Origin: Escherichia coli
GTDB lineage: Bacteria > Pseudomonadota > Gammaproteobacteria > Enterobacterales > Enterobacteriaceae
NCBI RefSeq assembly: GCF_965641715.1
Contig: NZ_OZ282453.1
Reading direction: 5' to 3' (one strand)
DNA length: 64,000 nucleotides
In this document: in pieces, positions 11,560 to 43,640 of the stretch
Layout: the number at the start of each line of letters is the position of its first letter
How positions within the stretch are numbered: position 1 is the stretch's first letter
Made by a program: the position numbers and the translations under genes
The notes under the pieces: model-generated
What the model was told of the DNA's origin: nothing
Databases searched by the model: none
The model's input: only the letters and a program-made list of their open reading frames with translations

Positions 11560-11732
11560 AAAGTTCTTTGACGTTGCATTGCTGGCGTAAATGTCAGCAA
11601 TGCAGCATTTCCTCACGATTCTCCTTTGACGATCGCACTTTTTGCTCGTTATGATGGCGTCGCTAGCCTCAGTAAATCCTTACTCCGGCGGTGCGCAACC
11701 CGTGCGCGTGAACCACTATCTGAATGCTCATC

Positions 11733-24958: not shown

Positions 24959-25420
24959 TTATTTCACTTCTTTAAAACCAGCGGCTTTCATCACCAGTTC
25001 CATTTGCGCCATAGTGATACCTTTTTTGGCATCTTCAGCAGAAACGTTGATTCCTGAAATACCCTGCAGGGCTTTAAAATCCACTTTTTCCATATCGATA
25101 GTCACGTTTTCCTGCGCGTAGGTATCGGTATAGGTTAATTTTTCTTCAACACCCGCGATGTTTTTGTATTTGGCGCTTAACGGCTCAAGTGTCTTGGCAG
25201 CATCTTCTTTGGTGGTTGCACCAATGGAGGCAAATTGAATTTTGGTTTCAGAAGATTGCTTAAGCACCTTGTCACCTTTGTAGACATAGGTAATGGCAAT
25301 TTCAGTGCCGTTCAGATTGGCGCTGAATTTCTTCGATTCTTCTTTGTCACCGCAGCCAGCAAGAGAGAAAACCAGAACAGATGCAACAACAAGGGAAAAC
25401 AGCTTATTGAAAGCCTTCAT
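24959..25420 (-). CDS. yehR: lipoprotein YehR
   Basis: start at MKAFNKLF; lipobox LAGC. Confidence 0.85.
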   Translation of the reverse strand: MKAFNKLFSLVVASVLVFSLAGCGDKEESKKFSANLNGTEIAITYVYKGDKVLKQSSETKIQFASIGATTKEDAAKTLEPLSAKYKNIAGVEEKLTYTDTYAQENVTIDMEKVDFKALQGISGINVSAEDAKKGITMAQMELVMKAAGFKEVK

Positions 25421-25544
25421 GTAAAACTCCATTTTATTTAATCAAGGAACTGGTGACTCTCACCAGGGGCTATATAGGATATGCCTAATACCGTGGCGTG
25501 AGCAGTCCGGAACTGGAGTAGAACTCTTAGTAAAAAGCACTATT

Positions 25545-27548
25545 TCATCCTTGTTGCTGAAGCATGGGGAATAATTGTTCGCACAGCAAAACACCGTTAT
25601 TCATTGCTTCTACCCGTGCCTCGCTTTCTGTATTACGAAATTGTCCCAACATATGTGCCAGCCGATAAAAACCCACCGCGGTGAGGTCATTCGCCAGCAA
25701 CTCTGCCTGACCAATAGCACTCTGTTCCTGATAGCGCCAGCCGTTATGGAGCAGTTGAATAAGTAATGCCTGGCAGCGCATCAGCAACTGATGAGCAGTA
25801 GACGGCACAGGCAGAACGCTGGCAGAAGGTAGTGATGCCACCACAGGCGCAGTTTCTGCGTCCAGCGCCCAGGCACGAGTCTTTGTCATCATTACCTGTG
25901 GTTCCAGTGTCAATTGCCCATCAACAAAACTGACAAAGCCAGAAACCAGACACACGGGGTCGTCTGTTTGTTGCAAAAGCGCCGCCATGCGTTCAACGGC
26001 ATAAGGCGCGCTGGCTGAGGCTGGCAGTGATAACGTCAGCAGATTATCTTCACCTTCGCCGCTGATTACCTGCGCATCCAGCGTCTGGCGGCTGCTATCC
26101 CAACCGAGCGAAATACATTCAGCGACCGGCAGAATAAATAAGTTATCGACCTGATTAAGAGGCCGTATGCAGGAGGGGGGACGCTGGCGTAAATATTCCC
26201 GCAAAGCCACAATGCCCGGCTGGCGCAACGGCGCGCTCAACATTCGCCAGGCATCAGGCGACAGTGGAACAACACTACTCAAGCGGTTACGGGTCGCGAA
26301 CAGCAGTTCGCCTTCGGCACTGCGACGCGCTGCTTGTGAAACAATTTGCCCACCTGCCAGTGCGCCAGCCTGAAAACTAAACAGCCGACGCCTAGCTGCC
26401 GGTGAGTTTTCCTGTTCACTTCGCGGCCAACTGCGCGAAAGGTGCAAAATACTGCCGGTGTCGGGATCGGTAAACCAGATGCGTAAACCATAATGCTCAA
26501 TATCCTGCCAGCAACGCATACCTAAAGACACCAGCCGCAGATGATCAAGCTTTGCTTCTCCGGCAATGCCAGAGCCAACGACCGTGCGCCACGGCACAGG
26601 AGGAACTTCACCAACACTGTCGCGCCGGACCATCTCTTGTGCGCAATTTAATCGACTGTTTAATGCCGCAAGCTGACGTAAGCATTCTCCGGCATGATAG
26701 TGGCTGGCGCGGGCGTGGAAGGCATCAACGCTGGCGCGCAGTTGCCGTAGCGATTCACTCACCCAGCGCCAGTTGCAGGCCTCTGCCGCCTGCAATGCGC
26801 GGTTGAATGCTGCCTCGTAATGAATAAGCGGCTGGCTGATGCCGCTCAGCCATAATGCCTGGCTTAGTTGTTGAACATATTGACGACACGTTTTGCCTTC
26901 TTCGCTGGCAAACGGATCGTCAGATGATGTGACGTGTTCGCTGCGCATCTGCCAGATTAAATGAGTCAATTCCGCTTGCTGCGCTTTTGCCTGGACAAAG
27001 GCCTGTACTGCCAGTACGACATGTTCGCAAAGTGTGCCTTCAATACAATCACAACGGGCAAAACGAATGCTGCTACGGGAATAAAAACGCACATCGCTCA
27101 TCGGTAAGCGGGCAGAGGGAATTTCGCCCGGCGTACAGAACAACTCAATGGTGATGCCTTTAGCGACCAGCGCCTGTGCGCGTTTGCGGGTGGTATCGGG
27201 CAGGGTAGCCAGTTCTTCCAGCCAGATTGCCGGATCCCACTCTTCTTCTTTTTCCGTGGGCTGGACGGTGGCACAAAGTCGTTGATAACTTAACACCAGC
27301 ATCACGCGATGACGGCACATGCCGCTGGCCCCGCAGCTGCACTGAGCCTCTTTCAGTGCCTGGCCGTTCGCCAGCTGGGTACGGACACCGTCACTGAAGG
27401 TGGCGATTAAAGCGCCGTTCTCATGGCTGATTTCCGGGACGTTGCCATTTTCCAGTTCCTTAAGGCTGCGCTTAACAAAACCGGCATTGCTTAACGCCGT
27501 CAGGGCCTGCGGTGTCAGTTCTAATAATTCCGGACGTAGTGAATTCAT
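25545..27548 (-). CDS. yehQ: SWIM zinc-finger protein YehQ (two CxCxnCxH motifs)
   Basis: CSCGASGMCRH and CDCIEGTLCEH motifs; start chosen at the ATGA overlap with the yehP stop (alternative upstream start at 27572). Confidence 0.8.
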   Translation of the reverse strand: MNSLRPELLELTPQALTALSNAGFVKRSLKELENGNVPEISHENGALIATFSDGVRTQLANGQALKEAQCSCGASGMCRHRVMLVLSYQRLCATVQPTEKEEEWDPAIWLEELATLPDTTRKRAQALVAKGITIELFCTPGEIPSARLPMSDVRFYSRSSIRFARCDCIEGTLCEHVVLAVQAFVQAKAQQAELTHLIWQMRSEHVTSSDDPFASEEGKTCRQYVQQLSQALWLSGISQPLIHYEAAFNRALQAAEACNWRWVSESLRQLRASVDAFHARASHYHAGECLRQLAALNSRLNCAQEMVRRDSVGEVPPVPWRTVVGSGIAGEAKLDHLRLVSLGMRCWQDIEHYGLRIWFTDPDTGSILHLSRSWPRSEQENSPAARRRLFSFQAGALAGGQIVSQAARRSAEGELLFATRNRLSSVVPLSPDAWRMLSAPLRQPGIVALREYLRQRPPSCIRPLNQVDNLFILPVAECISLGWDSSRQTLDAQVISGEGEDNLLTLSLPASASAPYAVERMAALLQQTDDPVCLVSGFVSFVDGQLTLEPQVMMTKTRAWALDAETAPVVASLPSASVLPVPSTAHQLLMRCQALLIQLLHNGWRYQEQSAIGQAELLANDLTAVGFYRLAHMLGQFRNTESEARVEAMNNGVLLCEQLFPMLQQQG

Positions 27549-28681
27549 GACTGAAGATTCTCCGCAAGCCATGATGCCAGTTCGCCCGGTGTCATGGCGG
27601 CTATTTGTGCGCCGACATTAACCAGCGCCTGGGCCGTATCGCGGTCATAGCAAGGCGTTGCTGTGCTATCGAGCGCCGCCAGTCCCAGCACTTTGATGCC
27701 GCTCTGGACACACTTTTTCACCTGATGCGTCAGCAATGATGATGAACCCCCTTCGTAAAAATCGCTCACGAGGATAATGACGCTTTTTGCTGGTTGTTCA
27801 ATAAGTTGCCGACCATACTCCACGGCACTGGCGATATTGGTTCCGCCGCCTAATTGCACTTTCATTAATAACTCTACCGGATCGGCAACGTCTGCCGTGA
27901 GATCAACCACACTGGTGTCAAAAGCGACCAGATGGGTACGAATGCCGGGTAACTGCCATAAACAGGCCGCCATCACCGCAGAGTGGATCACCGAATCGAC
28001 CATCGAGCCGCTTTGATCAACCAGTAAGACCAGTTGCCATTGTTCGCTTTGGCGTTTAATGCGGCTGTTAAAGCGGGGGGATTCGATATACAACTTGCCG
28101 TGTTGTGGGTGCCAGTGTTGCAGGTTGGCGCGCAGAGTACTTTTGAAATCAAAGTTTCGCGCCAGTGGAATAAATGAGCGGCGACGGCGATCGCGGACAC
28201 CAGAAAAAGCCTGACGAACTTCCTTTGCCAGTCGAGCCATAATTTCTTCAACAACCTGGCGCACTATCCGGCGGGCGGCAGCCAGTACTTCGGGATTCAT
28301 CAGATGTTTGGTGTGCAAAACGGCGCGTAGCAGGCTTTCAGACGGTTGCATACGTTCCAGCACGTCGAGATTCGTCACCACATCTTCAATGCCATAGCGC
28401 AGTACGGCATCGCTTTCCAGCCGCTCAATCACCTGTTGCGGAAACAGCGTGTGAATACTGTTGATCCACTCAGGCGTGGTGAGATTTGAGCCACCTAATC
28501 CACCGGAGCGTTCACCACGCTGGAGCCGTTCAGGATCGCGCCCGTACAGCCACTCCAGCGCGTGGTCTATCTGCCGGGCGTTGTCATCCAGCCCACAAAG
28601 CGTCGTTTCTGCCGCTTCGCCAAGAATTAATCGCCAGCGTTGTAGCTCACGGGTGGTCAGAAGATCGTTCAGTTCAGACAT
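27545..28681 (-). CDS. yehP: von Willebrand factor A domain protein YehP
   Basis: MIDAS motif DxSxS (LLVDQSGSM); start at MSELNDLL overlapping yehM 3' end by 8 nt. Confidence 0.85.
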   Translation of the reverse strand: MSELNDLLTTRELQRWRLILGEAAETTLCGLDDNARQIDHALEWLYGRDPERLQRGERSGGLGGSNLTTPEWINSIHTLFPQQVIERLESDAVLRYGIEDVVTNLDVLERMQPSESLLRAVLHTKHLMNPEVLAAARRIVRQVVEEIMARLAKEVRQAFSGVRDRRRRSFIPLARNFDFKSTLRANLQHWHPQHGKLYIESPRFNSRIKRQSEQWQLVLLVDQSGSMVDSVIHSAVMAACLWQLPGIRTHLVAFDTSVVDLTADVADPVELLMKVQLGGGTNIASAVEYGRQLIEQPAKSVIILVSDFYEGGSSSLLTHQVKKCVQSGIKVLGLAALDSTATPCYDRDTAQALVNVGAQIAAMTPGELASWLAENLQS

Positions 28682-30953
28682 GGAAAACTCCCCAGTGTTG
28701 CAGCGATGCCAGTGCCTGCTGTTCGAGTTGTTGATGATGTGCAATGGCTTGTGGTGGACAATGCAACGGCATTTGCAGTGCCGAAACGGGAAGTTGCGCC
28801 AGTTGATAATGTTCAAGCACCTGATGCGCCAGCGTCCCGCGTTCTCGTGGTGGTAGCCAGGCCATCGCCGCGCGTAAATCGGGCAGGGCATTGATAAAAT
28901 CGGCATCACTTAGTTGATTTAAATGACTGCTGAAACCGGCGATAAATGCCGGCTGACAGGCCAGTTGATGACGGGCTAATGCCAGCAAACCGTGCAGCGC
29001 TTCGCCGGATTGTGCCGGGAAAAACTGTGCCAGCATCGCCAGCGCCGCTTCGGCACTGGCGTTGGGATGTTCCAGACGCATCAGTGCGCCAAGAGCCGCG
29101 CCGCGATCCAGCGCCGGGGCATGAATCGCCTGACTGCGTCGCTCCAGTAAGGCTACCGCCGCAGAAAGCGAAACGCCGGGTAAATTAACGCCGCTATGTA
29201 GATCGCGCAGGATATGGCAAAGCGCCTGCCAGCTATGCAGGTGAGCGTGAAACTCCTTTTCATCCGGTTTGCCGTTGGATTCACACAGCCAGAGCGTGCG
29301 ATCGATAGCCGCGCATAACGTCGTTTGTAATATCTGCGCGCCTTGCATACCGCTAATTTCATCCTGCCGCCATAAGGCATATAGCACTTCCAGCGCCTGG
29401 CCCATTTCGGCAAATTGATTTTCCTGGGCGATTAATAATGTGAGTTGCTCCAGTAATTGTTGACTGAAGGACGCCAGACCCGCTAACGCCGCCTGGCTAA
29501 GACATGTGGTGATACTGCCGATTCCACCCGCGTCCAGCATATCGGCTTCTAATTTATGGCGTGCGGCTCCCTGGAGTGTTGCACCAAAGCAGGCGGCCTC
29601 AATCAATGCCGCATGCTGGCTAAGCGGGCGGGTTAATTTCCAGCGTTCTTCACCGTTGCCTGCAAGTGTCAGTGTGCTTCCCTGCTGGCGTACAATCCCT
29701 GGGATCTCCAGTATTGCCAGCCGATGCAGCACCTGGCTTTGCGCCAGCCCATCGGAGGTAAAGCGATTTAAGGTAAGCTCCGCCGGAAGAGAGATTGTGG
29801 TACGTTCCAGTTCGCAAGTGACATCTTTTGGCAGAGGCGGTTGTGGCGTGGAGGGGGCTAGTTTACCGAATCCGTCACCCGCTAATGTGTCTATCAACGT
29901 TAGCAGAATCGGATCGGTGTCGGGATGAATAACTCCGCGATAGCTCCATGGCAACGGCGCATTCAGGGCTTCTTTAATCAGCGAGCCTGCGAAGGCATCC
30001 AGCCAGTCAGTGCGTAACGGCAGTGTATGACCGCGCAACTGTGCCAGCGCCATCGCATGCAGATGAGCGGCAGCCATATCCGCGGTCGAAGCAGGCAACT
30101 TGTGCTGGCGCAAACGGGTAAGGATAGTTTTTAGCAGTTGTTCTCCCGCCTGCTGTAAGCCCCACTGCCAGCACCAGCTTTGCCAGACCGGGGCAGGCAT
30201 TCCTGAAAGGTATCCTGCCAGCGCATCAAGGCGCTTTTCACTGTAGGGTGTGAGATAACAACCTGTAACGGCATCTGCCAGCGAGGGCAATTCTGGCTTG
30301 TTAATGTCCTGCGGGCATTCGCGCCACATTTTTGCCAGTGCCGGAGCGTGCCAGCCACCGCAGACGACTAACACGTCGCCATTATTTTGCTGCACCGCCC
30401 ATGCAATCCAGCGAGCCATAAAGGCTTCGCGCTGACGATTGAGTGCATCGCCGGGGAAATCGCCCCGCAGTTGGGCAAAATAGTGCGCCAGTGCAGAGGG
30501 TAATGCAGTTTGCTGGCTTTCATCTTCGAACAAGTGATCCCACAGGGTGTCGCTGTTATCCATGCGGGTGGCACGCAGCAGCAAGGTCTGGCTTTCCTCT
30601 TGCGTATCAGGCGAATCGTCCTCTTCTTCACTCTGTGCCCAGCAAGGCAAATCGATGAAGTAAGTTTGTGCCTGAATACGACGAGCGGCTTGTAGCGCCT
30701 GCCACTCCGGCGAAAATTCAGCAAATGGCGTCCAGGCACCACGCCCGGGGGCTGCACCGTCCTGATACTGGCAATAACTGTAAATAGCTACCGGAAGCTG
30801 GTGGGCTAAAAACAGTTCGTCTACCCGGTCATTAAAATCAGCCGGGCCTTCAATCAACACGTATCGTGGCCGCTGGCTTTCGATTAACGATTTCACCAGC
30901 CGGGCGCAGGCCGGGCTATGATGCCGGATGCCGACAATTAACGGCTCGCTCAT
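28674..30953 (-). CDS. yehM: uncharacterised 759-aa protein YehM
   Basis: start at MSEPLIVGIRHH 10 nt after the yehL stop with GAGGAAAG RBS; no motif I can assign. Confidence 0.85.
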   Translation of the reverse strand: MSEPLIVGIRHHSPACARLVKSLIESQRPRYVLIEGPADFNDRVDELFLAHQLPVAIYSYCQYQDGAAPGRGAWTPFAEFSPEWQALQAARRIQAQTYFIDLPCWAQSEEEDDSPDTQEESQTLLLRATRMDNSDTLWDHLFEDESQQTALPSALAHYFAQLRGDFPGDALNRQREAFMARWIAWAVQQNNGDVLVVCGGWHAPALAKMWRECPQDINKPELPSLADAVTGCYLTPYSEKRLDALAGYLSGMPAPVWQSWCWQWGLQQAGEQLLKTILTRLRQHKLPASTADMAAAHLHAMALAQLRGHTLPLRTDWLDAFAGSLIKEALNAPLPWSYRGVIHPDTDPILLTLIDTLAGDGFGKLAPSTPQPPLPKDVTCELERTTISLPAELTLNRFTSDGLAQSQVLHRLAILEIPGIVRQQGSTLTLAGNGEERWKLTRPLSQHAALIEAACFGATLQGAARHKLEADMLDAGGIGSITTCLSQAALAGLASFSQQLLEQLTLLIAQENQFAEMGQALEVLYALWRQDEISGMQGAQILQTTLCAAIDRTLWLCESNGKPDEKEFHAHLHSWQALCHILRDLHSGVNLPGVSLSAAVALLERRSQAIHAPALDRGAALGALMRLEHPNASAEAALAMLAQFFPAQSGEALHGLLALARHQLACQPAFIAGFSSHLNQLSDADFINALPDLRAAMAWLPPRERGTLAHQVLEHYQLAQLPVSALQMPLHCPPQAIAHHQQLEQQALASLQHWGVFHV

Positions 30954-30963
30954 GCATCTTTCC

Positions 30964-32052
30964 TCACGGCAGGCGGTGGCGGGCTTGATAATAAGCCTGC
31001 CAGTGAGCTTCTTTATGTGTGGCGACACGCTGTTCGAAGTAACGGCGCAGGCGCGCGCGATCTTCTTCGTTATCTTTGACGATGGTTCCGGCAATACAGT
31101 CCACCAGGTCGGCAGGCTCCCCCGCACGATTCGCTAAAAACCAGGCGCGGACGCCCACGGCGTGGGCCACGTTCACGGCTTCAGCCGTGGACATAATCGC
31201 TGTTAGTGTATCCATTGACGTTTTCTTTTCGCCGTTGGCACGCAGATCGCGGAAGGTGCGGACCAGTAACTCCAGTACCGCGTCAGGCACTTTATGCGGA
31301 ATACCGCTATGGGCCAGCAAACGCGCCGAAGCACTGGCGACAAGCTCCAGCTCCTGGGCGAAATCCATAATCGGAAAGACAGTTTCAAAATCGAAGCGAC
31401 GCTTTAGCGCAGCACTCATTTCATTGACGCCGCGATCGCGGGTATTGGCAGTGGCAATAATATTAAAGCCTTCTCGCGCATAGAGCTGACTGGCTTCACC
31501 TGTGAGTTCCGGTACCGTCATCACCCTGTCAGAAAGCATACCTAACAGACAGTCTTGCACTTCCAGCGGTGTACGCGTTATCTCTTCAAAACGGACGATT
31601 TTGCCGTCGCGCATTCCCTGGTAAAGCGGGGCAGGGACCAGCGCTTCCGTTGATGGACCATGATTGATAAGCAGGGCGTAGTTCCAGCCGTACTTGATTT
31701 GATCTTCGGTAGTAGATGCGCCGCCCTGGATGGTTAACCCGGCATCGCCGCTAATAGCGGTTGCCAGTAATTCAGACAGGAGAGATTTTGCGGTGCCAGG
31801 TTCCCCCACCAACATCAAACCGCGTCCGGTGGCAAGAGTGACTAACATACGTTCGACAGCGGAGGGACTAATCACCACTTTACGGCTAATATTTTGCGCG
31901 CTATCGCCAAGGATAAAAGCACGGGCCGCAGGCAAACTTAACTGCCAACCGGGCGGGCAAGGTGCGTTATCATTTTGTTTTAATTTTGTCAGTTCATCGG
32001 CGTATAACACAGCAGCAGGCGGACGCTGCAGATGATTATTCTGCGGTGACAT
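30964..32052 (-). CDS. yehL: MoxR-like AAA+ ATPase YehL
   Basis: Walker A LVGEPGTAKS, Walker B-like IVRFEEI, sensor-1 IIATANT; start at MSPQNNHLQ. Confidence 0.85.
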   Translation of the reverse strand: MSPQNNHLQRPPAAVLYADELTKLKQNDNAPCPPGWQLSLPAARAFILGDSAQNISRKVVISPSAVERMLVTLATGRGLMLVGEPGTAKSLLSELLATAISGDAGLTIQGGASTTEDQIKYGWNYALLINHGPSTEALVPAPLYQGMRDGKIVRFEEITRTPLEVQDCLLGMLSDRVMTVPELTGEASQLYAREGFNIIATANTRDRGVNEMSAALKRRFDFETVFPIMDFAQELELVASASARLLAHSGIPHKVPDAVLELLVRTFRDLRANGEKKTSMDTLTAIMSTAEAVNVAHAVGVRAWFLANRAGEPADLVDCIAGTIVKDNEEDRARLRRYFEQRVATHKEAHWQAYYQARHRLP

Positions 32053-32161
32053 ATATTCATCCCTGAAATGTATTAATGAAATAAACGATATTTTACGCGC
32101 AATAAATGTTTGGCGCATTAGTTGTTTGAGCGAAAAATATCTGGAAAGCAGATCACAGTAA

Positions 32162-32244
32162 ATAAAAAAACCTGCTGGTGAGGCAGGTTCTTTTATTTAC
32201 TACTTTGATGTTAAGTTACTGATACTGCAACATGGCATCTCAAC
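32162..32244 (-). ncRNA. orzO: putative type I antitoxin sRNA (OrzO-like)
   Basis: minus-strand promoter TTGCAA-17 nt-TATAAT; 5' end is a 19-nt near-direct copy (17/19) of zorO 5' UTR positions 32392-32410, so the RNAs can pair; 3' end at hairpin ACCTGC/GCAGGT plus U-run. Confidence 0.5.
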
Positions 32245-32250
32245 GAGCGA

Positions 32251-32301
32251 ATTATAACCACCTCGCGACCGTGTTGCAATTAAGATAATGAGATTTATAA
32301 T
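32251..32301. promoter_or_regulatory. overlapping divergent sigma70-like promoters sharing one palindromic -35 hexamer
   Basis: TTGCAA (32274-32279) is its own reverse complement; minus strand -10 TATAAT at 32251-32256 (17-nt spacer); plus strand -10 TATAAT at 32296-32301 (16-nt spacer). Confidence 0.5.
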
Positions 32302-32482
32302 CCTGACTGTTGGGAAGTTGCGCCGGATCGAACCCATTTCAAGTCCTGGCTACCGGACGGGTGGTGCCGCAGGTAGTGCTCTGATCCGGAGTGCAACATG
32401 GCGACTCAACATACGTAAACCAGTATCGACAGGCAGCGTAAGGGTAAGGTGCTGGTGTTGCGCTCCTTAATAAGGAGAGCGG

Positions 32483-32572
32483 ATGGACACGCTGACACAA
32501 AAGTTAACCGTGCTCATTGCTGTACTGGAGCTATTAGTAGCTCTGTTACGGTTGATTGATTTGTTGAAGTAA
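32483..32572 (+). CDS. zorO: type I toxin, 29-aa hydrophobic peptide (ZorO/ShoB-like)
   Basis: ORF MDTLTQKLTVLIAVLELLVALLRLIDLLK with AAGGAG RBS 5 nt upstream, verified codon by codon; long leader from predicted TSS near 32308; not in the ORF track. Confidence 0.7.
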   Translation: MDTLTQKLTVLIAVLELLVALLRLIDLLK

Positions 32573-32680: not shown

Positions 32681-32998
32681 TTATTCTATTTCTTGGTTGA
32701 ATATATTCTGTAGTTCACGATTAAAAATTGCTATTACAGTTTCAGGTGATTCACCTCGTAATTTCCGCTCATCAATACACTCATCTCTTATATAAATCAA
32801 CGCATCATTTATTAGCGGGTCAGCATCTTCTCGATCACGTTGATGAAATGTTGGATGTAGCCGGAATCGCTCCAGTCGATAGACGGAACCTGTAAATAAT
32901 TCAGAGCATTTATGGACCTCAAGTCTGAAGGAAAACGGATCTTCAGGTACAGGGACCTCATAATCGTAAATAGCAACCAGCTCTTTTTGCACGATCAT
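32681..32998 (-). CDS. yehK: uncharacterised protein YehK
   Basis: 105-aa ORF between yehI and the toxin locus; translation matches remembered YehK. Confidence 0.8.
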   Translation of the reverse strand: MIVQKELVAIYDYEVPVPEDPFSFRLEVHKCSELFTGSVYRLERFRLHPTFHQRDREDADPLINDALIYIRDECIDERKLRGESPETVIAIFNRELQNIFNQEIE

Positions 32999-33058: not shown

Positions 33059-36000
33059 TTAATGGAAAATGACGTCAGGTGCGCTTAACGCCTCACTCAA
33101 ATCAAACACATCAAGTTCGGCAAAAGTGACGGATTTATTGTCACGGTACACTCGAAGAGAACGGAAGCTCATTAGCGCTTTGCTATCAACATTGTAGTGG
33201 TTAAAACCGGGTGAAAACTTAAGGACCAGCCGGTACTCACCCAGGTCATAGACAAATGCGTCCTCATAGCCTGACTCCCAGCCTTTGTATCGCATTCCCA
33301 TAAGTTGCCCAACGGTAGCGGATTTACCTTCCCAGCGAGTCAGGCTGTTACTGGTTGACTCGTCAGGTGTGAGCAGCACCGTGCGGCGCGACAACTGGCG
33401 AAAAGGCGGCATAATTTCGTAATCGGCAAAAAGCTGTGCAAATTCACTGCGCATTTCTGCTGTCATTTCTAACGGGTGGGCAATGCCAATCAGAGCATCC
33501 GCAGGAAGGTCAATGGGCTCATCCTGCGCATTGCAGAACTCCCCCTCTGCGGCCACACGAAAGGCGTTGAGTAAACGACGCGGTTCATTTGCCGGATAAA
33601 CCCCCCATATTAATCGCTGGGTAACCAGGCGGGTAAAGGGATGATTAACAAACAGAGAATGAAAATCTGCCAGCGACCAGCGTCGGGTGGTACGTAGGGC
33701 AGCTTCAAGACGCGGGAGCAGGTTTTTGCTCACCTGAGTAGCATCTTTTTTTAGCCCTTTTAGTCGGGCCAGTGCCTCGGGCGCTTTCAGTTGATCGTCA
33801 TCGGCACGCAACCGGGGAACACTTTTCTGGCGAACGTTTTGTTGATCAAAGATAACCGGGTTGAGGTTTTCATCGAAGCGAACGGTAAACTGCCGGGGAC
33901 CAAAATCAAAAATCAACGCCTGCGGATCATCAAGACCCAGTGTTGGGACTAATCTGTCCGCTAACTCTTCCTGGCTTAGCCCGCGATTTTCTGCGACCAC
34001 CTGAAGAAATTCCGCTGCGTTTTCACGTAATGAAGAGGATTTCGCCCGTTGTGATACATGATGCAGCTGTATCAGCGCCATATCATTATTCATCAAGGTA
34101 AGTATATTCAGACCAATGACAGCACGGGCAGATTTGCCTTCTTGTGGCCAGGCGAGGATCTGTGTCGTCAGATCCCGAGCCGTGCTTTCGTCACCAAAGA
34201 GACTTAACGCCAGAAATGCCCAGTTGTCTTTTGCGGGGGCACCAGCTTGTTGCCACGCAGTGAAGAGATCCCAGGCAAAAGCGGCCAGCGTTTGTGGCTG
34301 GCAAAACGTTTTCAGTTGTTCCAGACCGCTATAAAAACGTCCGCCCTGGGTAAAGCGCAGCATTTCGCCGATAATTTCCAGAGCGTCATCGGTAACAGGC
34401 TGATTATTAGTGATAAGTCGCGGCCTGGACCACATTGCCGGATGCCAGAAATCAGGGGCTTTTGGAATGCGTGCCGGGTAAATGTCCATTGGACCCTGTT
34501 TCAGTAAATGCTCCAGGGCAGGCCATACATCTGTACGCTGCCAGCGGTTTGCCACGGTTTGCAGCAATTCACCATGTCCCTGTTCGTAAAGTAAACGCAG
34601 GGCAAGTAATGCAGCTTCGCTATTATCGCTGGATTTGGTGAAGACAAGAGGGATAAGTGCAGTAGCCGTATGTTCCGGCCAATGTAAAATCCACTGGCGA
34701 GCCAGATCACGCTGCACCGCGAAACGTCGCCAGACGCGGGCAACGGGCAGGGCCAGTTCTGTTGCGCCAAAATTTAAAATTAACGGAAATGTTTCTTTTG
34801 GACGATGTAAAAAAGCCAACATCAGACCTGGTAGCGCATCCAACCCGAGGATACTGAGAAAATAGTCCTCACCCGCGAACAGATGTTTTTTCTCATTGAT
34901 ACGCAGCCAGAAGGTCAAAGCCATCTCACGCGGCAACTGTGCCAATAAATACAGGTTCCAGACACTCTTTTCCGGACGATAACGTGAGTAGTTGTCATTT
35001 TCCCATATGTTAATTAACGCTTCTATGTGACCGCTGCGGAGCGCCTGTTCTGCTAATTGTGCTTCCGGGGAGTTCCAGCCATTCAGGATCTCTTCAACCC
35101 GCCCCTGGTAGTAATGCCACTGAACAATGAGTGAATTGCGTGCAGCATCCAGTTTTCCGGGGAGTATATAATTCAGAAACAGCCATACATCATCCCCAAA
35201 ACCCAGTTCCTGTAATACAACTCGCCCACTTTTTTGTTCCATGCGTTCCGCAAGAGATTCCGTGCTGAAATAACGGGCAGACTCAGTGGAGGCAAGCCAC
35301 TCTTGTTCGCCTGGTTGCCAGTAAACTTGCGGGGTTAATTCGAGCGGTGCCAAATCAAGACGTGGAGCTGTCATTTTTTTCTTACTACGCCACGGTGGTG
35401 AAACGAGGATTTCAGGCAGATTGCTGTTATCGGTGCCATCAATAACCGGTTTGGGCGGTGCCAATAAATAACTATTCAGTACTGCCCGGGCTTGAGTACT
35501 TAACCACTGCATCACCTCTTCTGCCAGTTGTGGCTGCGATGCCATCAGCGTTTGTAACAGCGTACGCCAGTATTCATCGCGTGCTTTTTGCTGGGCAGGC
35601 AGCTTTTTGTCTTCGATGATTGGATAACCAGGGCGGGCTGGTGGTTCTTTTAACGCCAGCAGTTCTGCCAGTGCCGCGAGCGTCGCGTGGGGGAAGTTTT
35701 TACTGTATTTAGCCACACGTTGCAGGCTGGGTTTGTTTTTATCAGCCACCAGTAGCAAGGTGTGGATGACCTGCGGATGGTTAATTTGTACCAACAGACT
35801 GCCGCAATCTTCTTTATGGGCATACATCGCGAGGCGCGGAATGGCTGCCAGTCCTTGTTCGCGCAAAAGGGCGGCGCAGGCCGCGTAGCCGAAGTGGTTT
35901 TTTTGTGACATGTAGCTGGCTTCGCGATCGCTAAATACGTCCAGGCCCCAGTATCGTTCGAGTTTTTTTACCGCCGTATTATCAGTAGCAACGACCTTTA

Positions 36001-36691
36001 ACCACTCCTTTGAATGGAGACTTGACCGGGAGCTTTCAAGACTGGCGAGTTCATTGGCTATTTCAGGCTTTTCCGGGAGGATCAGCGCAATAAAAGGACG
36101 GCGAATTTTGGGTATTCCTGGCAGTGCGGCAATGAGTTTATCGGCACAACGCTGCCAGCAACTTTCCTCTGCCAGCGACAGATGCTTACGCAAACGGAGA
36201 TCGAAATCGTTATAGGTCGCGGAGCCATAACCGTAGCCATAGTCCTCGTCCTGATACTGCAATGTCACTACCAGAGGATCACTCTCATAACACCGCGCAA
36301 TAAACTGGCGTGCAATCACCACCTCAGTCGCATATTCCAGCCCCTCTTGTTGGACGATTTCGTCGAGCAACTGTTGGCTGTCATTTTGCGCGATACAGGC
36401 TAGCGCCGCCATTGTCCGGGCCGGGATTGAGGGTTTGTGTTCGCCGATCAAGTTGATGGCCTGCGTGATGGCGGACTGCCACTCCAGTGAAAAATTTTCA
36501 TAACGCCAGACAATGTTTTTTTTCTTCTCAGCTTTTTTTAGCAATTCATCACCCAGTGTCTGGATGAGGCTTTCAGTGATAACAGGCGCTGGTTCGCCCG
36601 GCCAATTGCGATGGCTGAGTGGTGTTTTACCCTTTTTATATTTCAGTTCCAGTTGGGCGTTATCAGCCAGCCACGGTAATTCCTTGTCCAT
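33059..36691 (-). CDS. yehI: giant DUF4132-type protein YehI (no WGR domain)
   Basis: 1210 aa; C-terminal ~350 aa shares conserved blocks with the two downstream paralogs (WAF.AL...GDESTAR, LDFGPRQFTV, ADYE..PPF). Confidence 0.88.
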   Translation of the reverse strand: MDKELPWLADNAQLELKYKKGKTPLSHRNWPGEPAPVITESLIQTLGDELLKKAEKKKNIVWRYENFSLEWQSAITQAINLIGEHKPSIPARTMAALACIAQNDSQQLLDEIVQQEGLEYATEVVIARQFIARCYESDPLVVTLQYQDEDYGYGYGSATYNDFDLRLRKHLSLAEESCWQRCADKLIAALPGIPKIRRPFIALILPEKPEIANELASLESSRSSLHSKEWLKVVATDNTAVKKLERYWGLDVFSDREASYMSQKNHFGYAACAALLREQGLAAIPRLAMYAHKEDCGSLLVQINHPQVIHTLLLVADKNKPSLQRVAKYSKNFPHATLAALAELLALKEPPARPGYPIIEDKKLPAQQKARDEYWRTLLQTLMASQPQLAEEVMQWLSTQARAVLNSYLLAPPKPVIDGTDNSNLPEILVSPPWRSKKKMTAPRLDLAPLELTPQVYWQPGEQEWLASTESARYFSTESLAERMEQKSGRVVLQELGFGDDVWLFLNYILPGKLDAARNSLIVQWHYYQGRVEEILNGWNSPEAQLAEQALRSGHIEALINIWENDNYSRYRPEKSVWNLYLLAQLPREMALTFWLRINEKKHLFAGEDYFLSILGLDALPGLMLAFLHRPKETFPLILNFGATELALPVARVWRRFAVQRDLARQWILHWPEHTATALIPLVFTKSSDNSEAALLALRLLYEQGHGELLQTVANRWQRTDVWPALEHLLKQGPMDIYPARIPKAPDFWHPAMWSRPRLITNNQPVTDDALEIIGEMLRFTQGGRFYSGLEQLKTFCQPQTLAAFAWDLFTAWQQAGAPAKDNWAFLALSLFGDESTARDLTTQILAWPQEGKSARAVIGLNILTLMNNDMALIQLHHVSQRAKSSSLRENAAEFLQVVAENRGLSQEELADRLVPTLGLDDPQALIFDFGPRQFTVRFDENLNPVIFDQQNVRQKSVPRLRADDDQLKAPEALARLKGLKKDATQVSKNLLPRLEAALRTTRRWSLADFHSLFVNHPFTRLVTQRLIWGVYPANEPRRLLNAFRVAAEGEFCNAQDEPIDLPADALIGIAHPLEMTAEMRSEFAQLFADYEIMPPFRQLSRRTVLLTPDESTSNSLTRWEGKSATVGQLMGMRYKGWESGYEDAFVYDLGEYRLVLKFSPGFNHYNVDSKALMSFRSLRVYRDNKSVTFAELDVFDLSEALSAPDVIFH

Positions 36692-36700: not shown

Positions 36701-39700
36701 TTATTCAAACAGGGCTTCAATATCGTTAATTAGCTCGCTGGCGGTGATGGCATCGAGTACGGAGAGCTGCGCTTCCTGTATTGAATTACTCCCCCAGCCA
36801 TAGCTTTCCGCTTTGCCTTCCCATAGCCACAGCTTGCTTAAGAGTTGCTCGGCACTCAGTTCGGCTGGCGACATGCCTACCGCAAAGCCTTCATCGATTT
36901 CCATGATTAACGACCAGCGGCCCAGAGGTTTGATCATCCAGCCGATCCAGCCTCCATCCTGTGGTTCGCCCTTTATCCAGCCTTTATTCGCCAGCCCCAT
37001 TACCCGACCGCTCGGGCATTTTCTGCCTGCCCAGCGGGTCAGTTCGCTGGCATTGCGCTCGGTTTCTGTCAGGGCGTAACTGTTACGGTCGAGCTGGCGG
37101 AACGGCGGTAGCAGTTCGTAGTCGGCAAAAAGCTGCCCAAATGCGGCGGCATCCGTCGGTGATATTTCCAGAACGTGAGGAATACCAACAGAGATATCGC
37201 CTTCCGGCAGGGTGAAAAGATCATCGTCAGCGGTGCTGTAGCTGTTATCTTCCGCTACGCGGAAGCACGTCAGTAGCTGGTTTTCGGTGCTATAAACGCC
37301 CCAAATCAGACGGCGGGTTAAGTGGTGTACCAGTGGATGTTCAACCAGGAAGAGCTGAAAGTTTTCTGGCGACCAGCGGCGACGCAGGCACATGGCGGAT
37401 TCCAACCTTGCTACCTGCTGGGCGGCGACGGTACGCGCATCTTTTTTCAGCAGTTTGTAGCGGTTAACAGCATCGTTCGCCTGTGATTCATCATCGCTTT
37501 TGTTTGGTTTGGGCAGGTCTTTCAGACGGCTGCCGGAAGCGTCACGCACAAACGGTTTTAAGGTTTCATCAAAGCTGACGGTGAACTGGCGTGGGCCGAA
37601 ATCCAGCAGCAACGAACCGTTATCATCCAGACTGAGATCCGGTGCTAACCGATCTTCAAGCTCCGCCACTGTCAGTTCGCGACTTTCAGCAATGTCGGCA
37701 ATTTTCTCTTTCGCCCGCTCCTGTAAAGCTTTGAATTTCAGTTTCTGAGCAATGCCGTTAAGCTGCATCAGAGCGATATCACTACCGATAGCGGCGAGAA
37801 TATCCAACCCAACGGTGGCGCGTTTATGCTGAGATTCGCCAGGCCAGGCGCGTATTAATGGCGTCAGTTTGCGAGCGGTGTCGTCGTTACCGAGAACACA
37901 TAACGCAGTGAACGCCCAGCTTTCTTTCGATGGTGCACCCGTAGTCAGCCAGGCGGTAAACAGATCCCAGGCAAATTCAGCCAGTGAGTCGGCGGTACAG
38001 GCATCTTTCACCTGCAATAATCCCGGATACAGCGCCTCTTCCTGAGGGAAGCGGAGCATTTCACCGAGGTGGAGGAGGGCGTTATCTGGCAGTACCTTGC
38101 TGCTATTTTTGAGTTTTGGGCGAGTCCATAATGGAGGTTGATAAAACAACGGTAAAGGGGGGATTTTCGCCGGGTATTTACCCACAGGACTGTTGTCGTT
38201 ATTTTTATTTTGAGTTTCCCAGGGCGGCGAGACTAGTACCATTGGTAGAATTTCTGAGTTTGCAAAATCTTCATTGCGACTATTCAGCAATTGCTGACAT
38301 TGTTGCAATAAATTTGCCGCTTGCGACGATAATCCGATGACTAATTTTTCGACCAATAAAGGATTTGCATTAAGTAATGAAACCAGCAACGTATGTTTGC
38401 GTTTATCATCTTTTTTTACCAATTCTTCGGCTAATGCCGCTATCGTGGCAGAAGGAAAATTTTCGGCACTTTTTATTAGTCGTTCATAACAGCGTTTATT
38501 AGTATCGGCGGCTTCGATGAGTGCCGTAATGGCCAACGGATGATTAATACATTTCAGTACGTCACCGCAATTATCTTCTTCAGCATAGGAAGCCAGGCGA
38601 GCCAGTGCCGCTATACCTTGTTCCCGTAATACCGTAGCTGACCAACTGGCACCATAGGTGTTAAATACATCAATGTATTGATAGTTCTCCAGTATTTCGA
38701 GCGTGAATGGATCTGTCGCTACCAGTTTCAACATTTCAAGTTGTGGAACATCTGCGACCTGGTGTAAACGATGTACGATCTCATGGGCCACTTCGGGTAT
38801 TTCTGGCATTAAAATGGCAATTAACGGTTGGCGATAGAGTGATATATCTGGTAACGCAACGAGTAATTTTGCAATGCAATTTTGCCATACTTCTTCTTCT
38901 GCTAGTGATAAATGTTTACGCAGACGTAAACTAAATTTGTCGTTATTCCTTCTATAACTGTCCTTGCTGCTATCTGCATAATTAATAAAGAAAGTCAAAT
39001 GTTCATCTTTATAGTCAAAATCGAAATCAATTTGCCACCAGAAGATGACAGTTTCAGTTGCGTATTCGATACCGAAGGTGCTTACAATTTCATCCAGCAA
39101 CTCGGATGAGGTTTCATCATTCCAGCCCTGACAAAAACATATTTCCAGAAAAGTAAGTACCGCCATAGTACGCGCGGGTATCTCAGTCTTTTGGGCCTTA
39201 ATTAAGCTGATTGCCTGGCTAATCGCATCAGCCCATTCATCAGAGCATGAGCTGTAATCGAAAGTCAGATTTTTATAATAATGATAAGTACGATTTGCCA
39301 ATCGGGAAATTAAATTTTGTTTTTCGGGTTTGGTTGGTTTTTTAACTGGCTCTCCCGGCCAAAGGCGGTGGCTGAGGGCATGGCGGGCAATATTCGGGGG
39401 AAGAATAATGGGATCGTTGTCTGCCAGCCAGGGTAAACCATTAGTTGCTGCCTGGCGATTTATTGAGGCTTTTTCCTCTGTGACCAGGACTTTCTTTGCT
39501 GAGGCATCATGTGAGTGAGCGTTAGCGTCTACTTGCTCCACATACCCCTTCTTCACCTTCTCCGCAATCAGCTTCAGTTCCACTTTTTCCGCCGCCGCAG
39601 CATCTGCAAAGCTTTTTACCTGACTTTGCCCGTTAGTGCCGACTTTACCCCAGGTTATATGCAGCTCGTTTCCCTGCTGCTCCACCGCCCAGAATTTATG

Positions 39701-39733
39701 TGATTTTTCGTCCTGATAAATATAGGTTTTCAT
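36701..39733 (-). CDS. WGR-domain plus DUF4132 protein, 1010-aa paralog of MolR/YehI
   Basis: N-terminal WGR-like module (KFWAVEQQGNELHITWGKVGT) and C-terminal module about 75% identical to the molR-like product by eye. Confidence 0.85.
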   Translation of the reverse strand: MKTYIYQDEKSHKFWAVEQQGNELHITWGKVGTNGQSQVKSFADAAAAEKVELKLIAEKVKKGYVEQVDANAHSHDASAKKVLVTEEKASINRQAATNGLPWLADNDPIILPPNIARHALSHRLWPGEPVKKPTKPEKQNLISRLANRTYHYYKNLTFDYSSCSDEWADAISQAISLIKAQKTEIPARTMAVLTFLEICFCQGWNDETSSELLDEIVSTFGIEYATETVIFWWQIDFDFDYKDEHLTFFINYADSSKDSYRRNNDKFSLRLRKHLSLAEEEVWQNCIAKLLVALPDISLYRQPLIAILMPEIPEVAHEIVHRLHQVADVPQLEMLKLVATDPFTLEILENYQYIDVFNTYGASWSATVLREQGIAALARLASYAEEDNCGDVLKCINHPLAITALIEAADTNKRCYERLIKSAENFPSATIAALAEELVKKDDKRKHTLLVSLLNANPLLVEKLVIGLSSQAANLLQQCQQLLNSRNEDFANSEILPMVLVSPPWETQNKNNDNSPVGKYPAKIPPLPLFYQPPLWTRPKLKNSSKVLPDNALLHLGEMLRFPQEEALYPGLLQVKDACTADSLAEFAWDLFTAWLTTGAPSKESWAFTALCVLGNDDTARKLTPLIRAWPGESQHKRATVGLDILAAIGSDIALMQLNGIAQKLKFKALQERAKEKIADIAESRELTVAELEDRLAPDLSLDDNGSLLLDFGPRQFTVSFDETLKPFVRDASGSRLKDLPKPNKSDDESQANDAVNRYKLLKKDARTVAAQQVARLESAMCLRRRWSPENFQLFLVEHPLVHHLTRRLIWGVYSTENQLLTCFRVAEDNSYSTADDDLFTLPEGDISVGIPHVLEISPTDAAAFGQLFADYELLPPFRQLDRNSYALTETERNASELTRWAGRKCPSGRVMGLANKGWIKGEPQDGGWIGWMIKPLGRWSLIMEIDEGFAVGMSPAELSAEQLLSKLWLWEGKAESYGWGSNSIQEAQLSVLDAITASELINDIEALFE
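39665..39718. repeat. 54-bp segment identical to 43475-43528
   Basis: direct sequence comparison of the 5' coding ends of the two WGR paralogs. Confidence 0.85.
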
Positions 39734-39745: not shown

Positions 39746-42700
39746 TTAATCAAACAGTGATTCAATGTCGTTAATCAGCTCGCTGGCGGTGATGTCGTCG
39801 AGCATGGAGAAAGTGGGTGAGGATTGTTTACCATAGCGATCATAAGGGGCGGTGATTTTTACGCTTTCGACAGGCAGCAGGTCGCTATACCCCGTTTCGC
39901 CATAAATTAATGAAAAAGGTTCCGTTTCAAGTTCGAGAGCACCATAAGGGGTAGATTTGCGCATCGCATAAACGCTGCCGCTTTCTTCCAGACGTTGCCA
40001 GCCTCGGCGTTCCAGCCCGACAATGCGTCCGGCCTGGCAGAGACGTCCGTTCCAGCGTGACAATTCATGGACATTACGTTCGTTATCAGCAAGGTGGTAA
40101 CTACCACGTTCGAGCTGTTGGAAAGGGGGAAGCAGTTCGTAATCAACGTAAATTTGCCTGAATGCAGCGGCGGATTCAGGGGGGATTTCCAGCACATGCG
40201 GTATACCGATGTTTCCTGCTGGCAGCGTGAATAACTCATCCTGCGCATCGCTGTAAGTGCTGTCTTCTGCCACGCGAAAACAGGTGATAAGAGCGTTTTC
40301 ATCGTTATAAACCCCCCATAACAGCCGTCGGGTTAAGTGACGTACCAGCGGATGCTCCACCAGAAACAGGCGGAACTGCTCTGCCGTCCAGCGTCTGCGC
40401 TGGCACATAGCCTGTTCCAGACGGGTAATATGCTGGCTGGCGATAGCACGAACATCTTTTTTCAACTGTTTGAAGAGATTAACTGCGTCAGTTGCCAGTG
40501 TTTTATCATCGCTCTGGTTTGGCTTAGGTAAATCTTTCAGGACTTTGCCGTTTGCATCGCACACTACAGGTTTTAAGGTTTCGTCAAAACCAACGGTGAA
40601 TTTGCGGGGGCCGAAATCCAGTATCAGCGAGCCACTGCTATCAAGCCCTAAATCTGGAGCCAGGCGGTCTTCCATTTCAGCCATAGTCAGCCCACGGTTT
40701 TCAGCAACTATGTTGATTTTCTCGCGGGCATGTTCCTGTAATGCTTTGAATTTAATTTTTCGCGCGATGCCATTAAGCAGCATTAGCGCAACATCGCTGC
40801 CAATATCAGCTAATACATCCAGCCCGGACACCGCCCGTTTATGCTGGGATTCCCCAGGCCAGGCGCGGATAAGCGGGGTTAATTTACGCGCGGTGTCGTC
40901 ATTGCCTAAAATCCCAAGCGAAGTAAATGCCCAGTTTTCTTTTGCGGGTGCGCCAGCTTCTGTCCAGGCGGTATACAGATCCCAGCCAAATTCAGCCAGT
41001 GATTCGCGGGTGAAGATTTCTCTAATGATATCCAGCCCAGCGTAGGCGGTAATGTCGCGAGGAAAGCTCAGCATAGTGCCGAGGTGGCGCATAGCGTCAT
41101 CTGACAGAGGCAGGTTGTTACTTTTAAGCCGTGGTCTGCGCCATAAGGTGAACTGATAAAAGCCGGGCAGTGGGGCGATTTTAGCGGGATATTCTTCCAG
41201 CGGCTCGCTATCAAATAATGTTGCCAGCGCAGCTAAAACATCAGGTTGGTTATACCCCTGGGCGATTTCTTCAATCGTTTCTCGCTGGTTTAAATTCACC
41301 AGCAGACGAAGCGCCTGGCGGGCACAATCACGATCTTTTCCTTTTTTGCCCAAGGCCACAGGAAGTAGCCCGGCGGCAGCATGGCGTGGGAAGTTAGCCA
41401 GCCATTTTCGAGCATCTTCAGCAGACATTTTTTTCTGTAATCGCTGCGCCATCGGTAATGCTAATTCGCTGACGCCCAGGAAGAGGGTGAATATCCATAA
41501 CTGTTGTGGCTTACGTTGCAGACATTTCATAAACGCAGGAATGGCCGCATCACCAAAAATCGCCAGAATTTCTCTCTCGCCGGAGAATTGCTCTTCATTA
41601 ATTATTTGATTGAGAAAAGAAATAGCATGCTGAGTGGGTAGGAAGCAGAGCGCGTACAACTGCCAGTGTCTGCTTCCTTTGTTATGGTATTGCGCAAACT
41701 CGGCTTTCAGCGCGGGGAAATCGAAACGTAACAGGGCATCAACTGCGCTTTGTGGCATTATTTTTTTTTCGTATTGTTCTTCTCCGGTTCTGCGCCATTC
41801 CTTAAACCCCAGTCGCCAAAGGATTTGCTGTTCTGGCGTTAAAGGGATGAAAGACGTTTCCCAGCGTTCTTTTTTTATCGGTGGCAGGTCGGTAAATAAG
41901 GTTTGCTGTGATGCCTGATATTGCGCGATTTCACTGAATCTGGATATGTCAGTATGACTGATTAACTCTGTAATTCCTGGTGTGATATCCGTGACGGCAG
42001 GAATGGGAAGTACCGGTAAATCAAATACGGGTATGACATTCTTTTTCTTATTTATTACCCACGGTGGAGCGACAAGCAGCTCCGGCAACATATCCACAGT
42101 GGCATATTCACATTCTTCAGCTACTGGCAGCGGACGACATTCAGATAAGATGCCTGCCGCCTTAGCATTAACCCAGGGAATGACCTCGCATACTAACTCT
42201 GGCGTGGCGGTAATCAGTTTGACAAGCGCTTTACGCCACTCATTATTTTCATGTATTGCCAGCAAAGTAGCATAAGCGGCAATAGCCGCAGCGGGATGTT
42301 TTTGGCAGGCTTTGCTTAAGTATTCCAGGTGCTTTTTCTTGCCATTTACACCGAGGATCAGAATTTGAATCGCATCCGGGTGATTCGTTTTCCATAGCCA
42401 TTTGACAAGATCTTCAGTCTCGCTGATACGCTCGAAGAGATAAGTGGGATTGTCAGAATGCTCTTCCGTAAACTCAAGAAGTATCCGGCTTACACCGCGC
42501 ACCCCATTATTTGCCAGCAACATTGCCAGATAAGCGCGAAAATCATGATACAACGGTGGGAAGTCGTATTTTTCTGCTGTAGTCAGAGCGGCGTCATCGG
42601 TTACCACCAGTCTTAACCAGGTCATCGCCGGAACGTTTTGATCTGCATAACGTAGCGCCATAGCATTGGCAATATCCGGGCGTTCAGGGAGCAGTAACGC

Positions 42701-43543: not shown

Positions 43544-43640
43544 TCTGCATCCCTGTAATTTTATCCAGTTGAATGCAGATGCTACCAGTATTTATGCGGG
43601 TTAGAGAGAGACAAAATCGTAAGAAAACAACTTTAGGAAT

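Follow-up and report, generated by a model that had tools for sequence, protein, structure and literature searches.

A conserved yehLMPQ–DUF4132 operon of Escherichia coli that may encode a DNA-targeted MoxR–VWA remodelling complex

The DNA analysed here, a 64,000-nt window from Escherichia coli (contig NZ_OZ282453.1), contains the genes yehL, yehM, yehP and yehQ, all of which are encoded on the minus strand. Motif positions were checked by translation, and coordinates refer to the window. The cassette has the following layout:

30964..32052, minus strand: yehL, MoxR-class AAA+ ATPase, 362 amino acids (aa)
30954..30963, minus strand: yehL–yehM spacer of 10 nt (ggaaagatgc), between the yehL stop at 30964 and the yehM ATG at 30953
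28674..30953, minus strand: yehM, DUF5682 protein, 759 aa
28674..28681, minus strand: yehM/yehP overlap of 8 nt, ATGTCTGA
27545..28681, minus strand: yehP, CoxE-type VWA protein, 378 aa
27545..27548, minus strand: ATGA, in which the yehP stop and yehQ start codons overlap
25545..27548, minus strand: yehQ, SWIM protein, 667 aa

The ribosome-binding site that precedes yehM, AGGAAA, takes in the last base of the yehL TGA stop. The RefSeq annotation of E. coli lists the products as ATP-binding, DUF5682, VWA and SWIM proteins, with junctions identical to those of the window. Longer open reading frames (ORFs) with starts at 32118 (yehL) and 27572 (yehQ) were dropped, since the RefSeq starts fit the orthologue alignments and the coupling pattern. 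An initial annotation, made from the letters of the window, had described four same-strand genes joined by a 10-nt gap with a ribosome-binding site, an 8-nt overlap and an ATGA, and had identified their products by the motifs GEPGTAKS, FEEI, ATANT and DQSGSM and by SWIM fingers; the junctions are seen in the window, and the gene identities and all of the motifs hold on translation. Against its best matches in E. coli, the 8-kb region that contains the cassette shows ~97.5% identity.

For comparison across genomes, an alignment of YehM was used to fetch 80 loci from one-genome-per-species collections, and the proteins of the window were mapped onto them. The yehLMPQ module is present in at least 535 bacterial species representatives, and the taxa that carry it include Gamma- and Betaproteobacteria, many Actinobacteria, and myxobacterial and 'Deltaproteobacteria' genomes; a contig from the Acidobacteria carries the same six genes, which have 4-nt overlaps among them and encode proteins of nearly the same lengths. 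The order L, M, P, Q on one strand is kept in 66 of the 68 loci whose flanks are long enough to show it. At least one DUF4132 gene (one to three) stands on the same strand beside yehLMPQ in 58 of the 60 loci with room on both sides, upstream only in 54 of them and downstream only in four (Burkholderia, 3' of yehQ). These genes usually lie directly upstream of yehL, and their products often carry an N-terminal WGR domain. The proposed four-gene unit does hold together across genomes, but what is conserved goes beyond it: the DUF4132/WGR genes come first in a self-contained operon that moves between genomes, and yehLMPQ makes up the downstream half.

The junctions are conserved along with the gene order. 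The yehM/yehP junction overlaps in 68 of 77 loci (exactly −4 in 54) and the yehP/yehQ junction in 63 of 75 (exactly −4 in 57), while yehL and yehM are separated by 20 nt or less in 73 of 79; these counts take the start nearest the upstream stop, which biases them to small gaps but does not account for the pile-up at exactly −4. Tight coupling across phyla is more than chance, and the translational coupling first suggested by the window is upheld by overlaps kept across the 80 loci. When 596 flanking ORFs from these loci were clustered, no other recurring neighbour was found in more than 7 of 80, nor was a conserved client enzyme found adjoining the module. This makes the module self-contained, in genomic settings that are unrelated to one another and encode no client enzyme nearby, which weakens a classical chaperone model.

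An insert between yehM and yehP in four betaproteobacterial loci was considered as a sixth subunit and ruled out, as two of the inserts encode toxin–antitoxin-like genes and a third an unrelated protein. In Azoarcus a HigB/HigA-like pair lies between yehM and yehP (L023, 4977-5633), and in Xenophilus a Phd/YefM-like gene is found at the same junction (L045, 12336-12746), both assigned by reading the sequence; the 346-aa protein encoded between yehM and yehP in Chitinibacter (L021, 12527-13567) is unrelated to them. Toxin–antitoxin modules are nested in the operon in three unrelated lineages, the E. coli case being zor-orz. DUF4132 paralogues can also occur apart from the module, as in Kitasatospora, where a DUF4132 protein (L084, 10001-11974) has no yehLMPQ within 10 kb.

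In the window the DUF4132/WGR array consists of three paralogues:

39746..43543, minus strand: first array gene, WGR-DUF4132, equivalent of molR/yehF-yehH, 1265 aa (Pfam DUF4132 E 8e-50, C-terminal 1198 residues)
36701..39733, minus strand: second paralogue, WGR-DUF4132, 1010 aa (Pfam WGR E 5e-17, DUF4132 E 2e-51)
33059..36691, minus strand: yehI, third paralogue, DUF4132 without WGR, 1210 aa (Pfam DUF4132 E 3e-47)

The first and second paralogues are spaced by 12 nt, and the second paralogue and yehI by 9 nt. WGR domains are found in two of the three array proteins: the WGR region of the second paralogue matches PDB 2ra8_A (E 7e-18), and the N-terminus of the molR equivalent, MRHFIYQDEKSHKF, is homologous to it. 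The initial annotation had noted this array as neighbouring context. The array is present, but it is more than context, since it lies within the conserved operon in nearly every other genome. The C-terminal ~500 residues of DUF4132 (for example, window positions 36704..38197) contain many invariant charged and His residues over 35-106 sequences, in the motifs WPG, DRL.P, FDE, LPKP...DD, HPL..H, AED and DYE..PF.Q..R. A search of the PDB by sequence and profile gave no solved relative of the DUF4132 region. The C-terminal region could be an enzyme or a surface that provides a ligand to the metal ion-dependent adhesion site (MIDAS) of a VWA domain.

The core of the cassette is a MoxR–VWA pair whose catalytic parts are highly conserved. 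YehL is 60-90% identical across phyla, and 169 of its 362 positions are at least 95% identical in 80 orthologues, catalytic motifs included. At that level of conservation are the Walker A motif GEPGTAKS (31783..31806; G83-S90), E156 and E157 of the Walker B motif VRFEEI (31579..31596), sensor-1 ATANT (31441..31455) and the arginines of KRRF (residues 217-220). In Walker B a Glu takes the place of the Asp of the hhhhDE consensus; judged from the alignment, this EE signature is a fixed feature of the family, and ATP hydrolysis is predicted. YehL orthologues carry Pfam AAA_5 (PF07728) in precomputed matches, NCBIfam gives weak matches to GvpN and McrB, and the closest solved sequences are the AAA domains of midasin (E 3e-10). 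The C-terminal residues R358, L361 and P362 (30964..30975) and the N-terminal PPGW (33-36) are likewise at least 95% conserved across phyla, and may serve as docking motifs. A 'YehL subfamily' of MoxR was named in 2006 by Snider and Houry, as cited in PMC3893208, and the cassette is thus not a new discovery.

YehP has a complete MIDAS, formed by D222-x-S224-x-S226 (28004..28018), T281 (in 27833..27847) and D307 (in 27755..27769), with conservation of 95% or more at each of the five in 77 orthologues. Precomputed matches to VWA_CoxE (PF05762) and VWA_2 (PF13519) fall on YehP orthologues and on read-through fusions rather than on the window protein, and NCBIfam gives a weak match to cobaltochelatase. 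The MoxR and VWA/MIDAS assignments, already proposed for the window proteins, are supported by these conserved motifs and by the family matches on the orthologues. PDB sequence and profile searches gave no solved relative of YehP. The gene also holds, at 27808..27823 on the minus strand, an exact copy of the 16-nt frameshift site GTGGAGTATGGTCGGC, which is reported to promote +1 ribosomal frameshifting at yehP codon 291 and to yield a 303-aa product without the last 75 residues (PMC2790909). This product would lose D307 of the MIDAS.

YehM, in which the initial annotation recognised no motif, is a Pfam DUF5682 protein whose N-terminal domain has the TIKI/TraB/ChaN/erythromycin-esterase fold and in which His and Glu residues are conserved. 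An AlphaFold model (27 sequences; predicted local distance difference test score, pLDDT, 83) shows an α/β domain at residues ~1-240 (30234..30953) followed by a helical solenoid at ~255-759. The α/β domain has the parallel β-sheet core common to ChaN, HopBA1, Bcr135/136, PMT and RRSP, with ChaN as the best structural match. These structures are listed in the TIKI superfamily, whose catalytic signature consists of two His, two Glu and a basic residue (PMC6254334). The candidate active-site positions of YehM are as follows:

30921..30932, minus strand: first GxxH motif, G8-x-R10-H11, after β-1, located by model and alignment
within 30846..30860, minus strand: E35, at the end of β-2, located by model and alignment
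30423..30431, minus strand: R175/E176, located by alignment
30348..30359, minus strand: second GxxH motif, G199-G200-x-H202, after the β-strand 194-199, located by model and alignment

Across 81 sequences, conservation reaches 95% or more at all nine of these residues (G8, R10, H11, E35, R175, E176, G199, G200 and H202), and the candidates for the second Glu of the 2His/2Glu signature are E176, E83 and E143. The α/β fold is shared with the members of the superfamily (Tiki1/2, RRSP, EreA-C, Bcr135/136, HopBA1, PMT C2 and ChaN, as well as TraB/PrgY), and the two GxxH-type His after β-strands, the Glu after β-2 and the conserved Arg may correspond to theirs. YehM differs from them in the absence of a Pfam profile match, in the fusion to a solenoid of ~500 residues and in its setting in a MoxR–VWA operon; a TIKI-superfamily domain in such an operon was not described in the literature searched. 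A match to CBM46, seen at E ≤10, was discarded as spurious, and sequence and profile searches found no relevant PDB relative of YehM.

YehQ is the fastest-diverging of the four proteins (25-64% identity), and PDB sequence and profile searches found no solved relative. Its structural model is of high quality (pLDDT 91.6; predicted template modelling score 0.90) and defines, together with the translation, the following parts:

27309..27341, minus strand: SWIM1, CSCGASGMCRH, from the translation
27021..27053, minus strand: SWIM2, CDCIEGTLCEH, from the translation
residues ~216-311 and ~584-666, minus strand: helical bundles, from the model
25869..26558 (residues ~331-560), minus strand: β-rich region resembling tandem OB folds, from the model

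The Pfam SWIM profile matches with E values of 9.7e-4 and 0.21. SWIM1 is kept in all 64 orthologues compared, whereas SWIM2 is kept in 32 of them and mostly replaced by T/A/D/A at the four zinc-ligand positions in the rest. The description of YehQ as a double SWIM protein is thus correct for the window protein, which has both fingers, but does not hold throughout the family. In Foldseek searches the β-rich region gave RPA70 DBD-A/B as the top match (probability 0.99, E 1.8e-3), with further matches to LEF-3, the HIN domain of MNDA, CST and POT1. OB-fold DNA-binding proteins were matched by two methods in agreement, all with weak scores; nor is there detectable sequence similarity to RPA70 DBD-A/B, to other tandem OB binders of single-stranded DNA or to SWIM proteins such as ZSWIM8. 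In the model, YehQ looks like a DNA binder, with a putative tandem OB region that resembles the single-stranded DNA-binding domains of RPA70.

In E. coli the locus occupies a fixed site among housekeeping genes, with metG on one side and yehR/yehS/btsSR on the other, and 5200 of 5426 complete genomes (96%) carry at least 80% of the 8-kb region. None of YehL, YehM, YehP and YehQ gave a match in PADLOC-DB at E ≤0.01. The 'conflict or defence island' setting that had been attributed to the locus is not supported, given a core locus with housekeeping neighbours and no PADLOC match. The GC content of yehLMPQ is 54-56.5% (window 25000..32000 compared with its flanks), that of the neighbours ~50% and that of the yehK/zor-orz spacer 42%; the raised value fits an old acquisition from a donor of higher GC content. 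Between the DUF4132 array and yehL, and upstream of the array, the window contains these elements:

32681..32998, minus strand: yehK, 105 aa
32483..32572, plus strand: zorO, 29-aa ORF, MDTLTQKLTVLIAVLELLVALLRLIDLLK, from the ORF translation
32164..32237, minus strand: OrzO RNA (OrzO-P RNA, Rfam RF02083), 88.8 bits against a gathering score of 60
43553..43568, minus strand: SOS-box-like site CTGGATAAAATTACAG, CTG-N10-CAG with one mismatch to CTGT-N8-ACAG, 9 nt before the ATG of the molR equivalent

YehK was detected in the E. coli locus and in none of the other 80 loci, Klebsiella included, and yehK is outside the conserved module. The adjoining type I toxin–antitoxin locus seen in the first reading is confirmed as zor-orz by the RF02083 match and the ZorO ORF; Fozo et al. 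(2010, PMC2887945) described zor-orz at this position, with yehI and yehL on either side. The toxin–antitoxin genes (32164..32572) are an insertion upstream of yehL, nested in the locus but outside the conserved module. The gap between yehI and yehL is 240 nt in Klebsiella and ~25-30 nt in Erwinia and actinobacteria. Other Rfam matches above the gathering score in the window are all on the plus strand: a Peptidase-S11 RNA at 11648..11728, a TPP riboswitch at 54648..54744 and naRNA4/CssrE at 62599..62669.

The K-12 locus differs from that of the window. In MG1655, YehQ is 614 aa long (L085, 17101-18945) through a GAG to TAG change at window codon 616 (615 in K-12 numbering), and all that remains of the array is yehI, a WGR fragment (yehF) and a pseudogene (yehH). 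Because the K-12 locus is decayed, phenotypes of K-12 strains, or their absence, say little about the intact system. Among E. coli protein clusters, full-length forms dominate (14594 + 4681 members for YehM, 11049 + 4644 for YehQ), and many truncated variants of both proteins are also found. In L1a, the dominant papGII+ sublineage of ST131, the blaCTX-M-15 transposon TnMB1860 is inserted in the metG/DUF4132/yeh region in 184 isolates (PMC9334617), so that the array can be disrupted in successful clinical clones.

Several observations bear on a link of the operon to DNA and on its regulation. WGR domains have been described as DNA-binding (PMC7824862). The K-12 gene molR, the first gene of the array, is among the LexA-regulated genes with a known SOS box (PMC6590174), and we infer that CTGGATAAAATTACAG corresponds to that published box, while the strict pattern CTGT-N8-ACAG is found nowhere in the window. 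Depletion of the DNA-damage repressor DdrO in Deinococcus leads to derepression of one WGR and one DUF4132 protein (PMC8533742). The molR promoter is also activated by BglJ-RcsB (PMC3950696), and H-NS binds upstream of yehL, with yehL and yehM up in an hns/stpA mutant (PMC3686432).

The known systems closest to the module share a part of its design. As in RavA-ViaA, NorQ-NorD, CbbQ-CbbO and CoxD-CoxE, a MoxR AAA_5 ATPase gene stands beside a VWA gene with a full MIDAS; in contrast to these pairs, the yeh module adds DUF5682, SWIM/OB and WGR-DUF4132 partners, has an EE Walker B and has no client enzyme alongside. The MoxR-vWA ternary systems of Kaur, Burroughs, Iyer and Aravind (2020) are likewise built on a MoxR-vWA core with extra parts that possibly include a peptidase-like effector, and are self-contained, patchily distributed operons well represented in Actinobacteria and myxobacterial genomes. 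Their third components (VMAP, iSTAND, FtsH and a vWA-fused β-propeller) are absent from the yeh module, whose partners are instead DUF5682, the SWIM protein and DUF4132, and YehP has no effector domain at its C-terminus; Kaur et al. make no mention of YehL, and their paper did not come up in literature searches for SWIM or WGR. Midasin (Rea1/Mdn1) combines a MoxR-clade AAA ring with a MIDAS and hydrolyses ATP to detach a bound protein from a large assembly, but it is a single eukaryotic polypeptide of 5000 residues that acts on pre-60S ribosomes, whereas the yeh proteins are separate and their targeting to DNA is a prediction. No established function for the cassette was found in the literature searched, in PADLOC, in NCBIfam or among solved structures, in line with the earlier statement that none had been assigned.

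We tentatively propose, at a likelihood somewhat short of even, that the product of the operon is a self-contained MoxR–VWA remodelling complex, which would be directed to DNA and have a TIKI-like hydrolase under its control. The domains, conservation and linkage on which this proposal is built were computed, and from them we infer the formation of a complex, DNA binding, hydrolase activity and the biological role. YehL, YehM, YehP, YehQ and the DUF4132 proteins would form one complex, in which the YehM solenoid would act as a scaffold that holds the partner. The MIDAS of YehP would grip an acidic residue of this partner, most likely a DUF4132 protein or YehM, and the YehL hexamer would hydrolyse ATP and remodel what is gripped. 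The WGR, SWIM and OB modules would bring the complex to DNA, probably single-stranded or broken. Remodelling would then switch on, deliver or release the TIKI-like hydrolase of YehM (a protease or esterase), as the probable catalytic output. In E. coli, molR with its putative LexA box would tie the DUF4132 half to DNA damage, and H-NS silences the yehL half; the likely role is therefore a response to damaged or foreign DNA.

A number of results weigh against this proposal. YehM gave no match to the Pfam families TraB_PrgY_gumN, Erythro_esteras and Cofac_haem_bdg, even at E ≤10, and its best structural match, ChaN, is a haem-binding protein and not an enzyme. YehM has the TIKI-type fold and, from its motifs, a plausible active site, while both its membership of the superfamily and its status as an enzyme are putative. 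A minimal L-M-P version is found in two myxobacterial genomes (Sandaracinaceae and 'Deltaproteobacteria'; loci L037 and L040), where neither YehQ nor a DUF4132 gene was detected within 10 kb, apart from a short DUF4132-like fragment at the far end of L040; YehQ and DUF4132 are so not strictly required. No SOS box was found directly upstream of yehL in the window, and a simple pattern scan, made without a position-weight matrix, gave no LexA- or Cheo-type box before the operon in other taxa. The SOS link therefore cannot be generalised beyond E. coli and Deinococcus. A connection with DNA damage could even be confined to E. coli, and there it may stop short of yehLMPQ, on the far side of yehK and zor-orz.

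A more specific version of the proposal, which we consider unlikely, is that the module is a DNA-damage-linked protein-removal machine or, alternatively, that the same machinery represents a new class of DNA-sensing immunity. For protein removal, the WGR, SWIM and OB modules would find broken or single-stranded DNA, the MoxR–VWA pair would grip a stuck protein and the YehM hydrolase would cut it, in functional analogy to the eukaryotic SPRTN/p97 repair of DNA–protein crosslinks or to extraction by midasin. An anti-phage or anti-plasmid immune system in its own right, in which DUF4132, WGR and YehQ would sense DNA or a phage protein, the MoxR–VWA pair would license the response and YehM would act as a toxic protease leading to abortive infection, is as doubtful. 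It would suit a self-contained operon that is patchy across phyla and genera in varied genomic contexts, with one to three DUF4132 paralogues, a YehQ that diverges fastest (25-64%), a GC content above that of the neighbours, H-NS silencing and toxin–antitoxin modules nested in three lineages. MoxR-vWA ternary systems with peptidase effectors have been proposed as conflict systems (Kaur et al. 2020), and TIKI-fold toxins exist, such as RRSP and HopBA1. The module nevertheless is without the third components that define the Kaur systems, none of its four proteins matches PADLOC, a link to phage defence was not found in the literature searched, the catalytic parts are extremely conserved (YehL 60-90% across phyla), and the set is core, with a fixed site in 5200 of 5426 E. 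coli genomes and housekeeping neighbours, which is unusual for defence systems.

Somewhat less probable again is a chaperone for maturation or cofactor insertion, like CoxD/CoxE, NorQ/NorD or CbbQ/CbbO, in which the ChaN-like domain of YehM would hold haem or a metal, with the DUF4132 proteins as clients or adaptors. Every experimentally studied MoxR–VWA pair is a maturation factor (PMC3893208; Kaur et al. 2020), YehP belongs to the CoxE-type VWA family (PF05762), and the best structural match of YehM is the haem-binding ChaN; yet known pairs usually adjoin their client, and across the 80 loci no enzyme or cofactor gene is conserved beside the module. The WGR, SWIM and OB modules point to nucleic acid rather than to a metalloenzyme, and YehM keeps the catalytic-type His, Glu and Arg of the superfamily. 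According to papers that cite Lee et al. (1990), molR was first described as needed for molybdate utilisation, but that phenotype comes from K-12, where molR is a pseudogene. We regard as improbable that the locus in E. coli is no more than a silenced remnant of a horizontal acquisition, with little present function, if any. H-NS silencing, the amber stop in K-12 yehQ, the decayed DUF4132 array, the many truncated YehM and YehQ variants in the E. coli clusters and the transposon tolerated in the DUF4132 region by an ST131 lineage (PMC9334617) would all agree with decay, whereas full-length YehM and YehQ dominate the clusters, purifying selection is strong, the locus is retained in 96% of complete genomes, and the window has intact active sites and start–stop overlaps, both of which are conserved across phyla.

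The cassette was already known as a gene block of unknown function, and YehL as the protein that names a MoxR subfamily. Without a report in the literature searched are the membership of the DUF4132/WGR array in the module, the TIKI-type fold of DUF5682, the OB-like module of YehQ and the decay of the locus in K-12. With ~18 kb and seven genes in intact strains, the module ranks among the largest conserved E. coli gene blocks without a known function. The membership of the DUF4132/WGR genes, the predicted hydrolase fold of YehM and the likeness of YehQ to DNA binders turn these unnamed genes into a testable hypothesis, and the decayed K-12 locus, with its yehQ amber stop and broken array, probably explains why so little came out of decades of K-12 genetics. 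If the proposed DNA-targeted remodelling complex is real, the MoxR–VWA family, so far known only for enzyme maturation, would gain a role in the handling of DNA-bound proteins or in the sensing of DNA.

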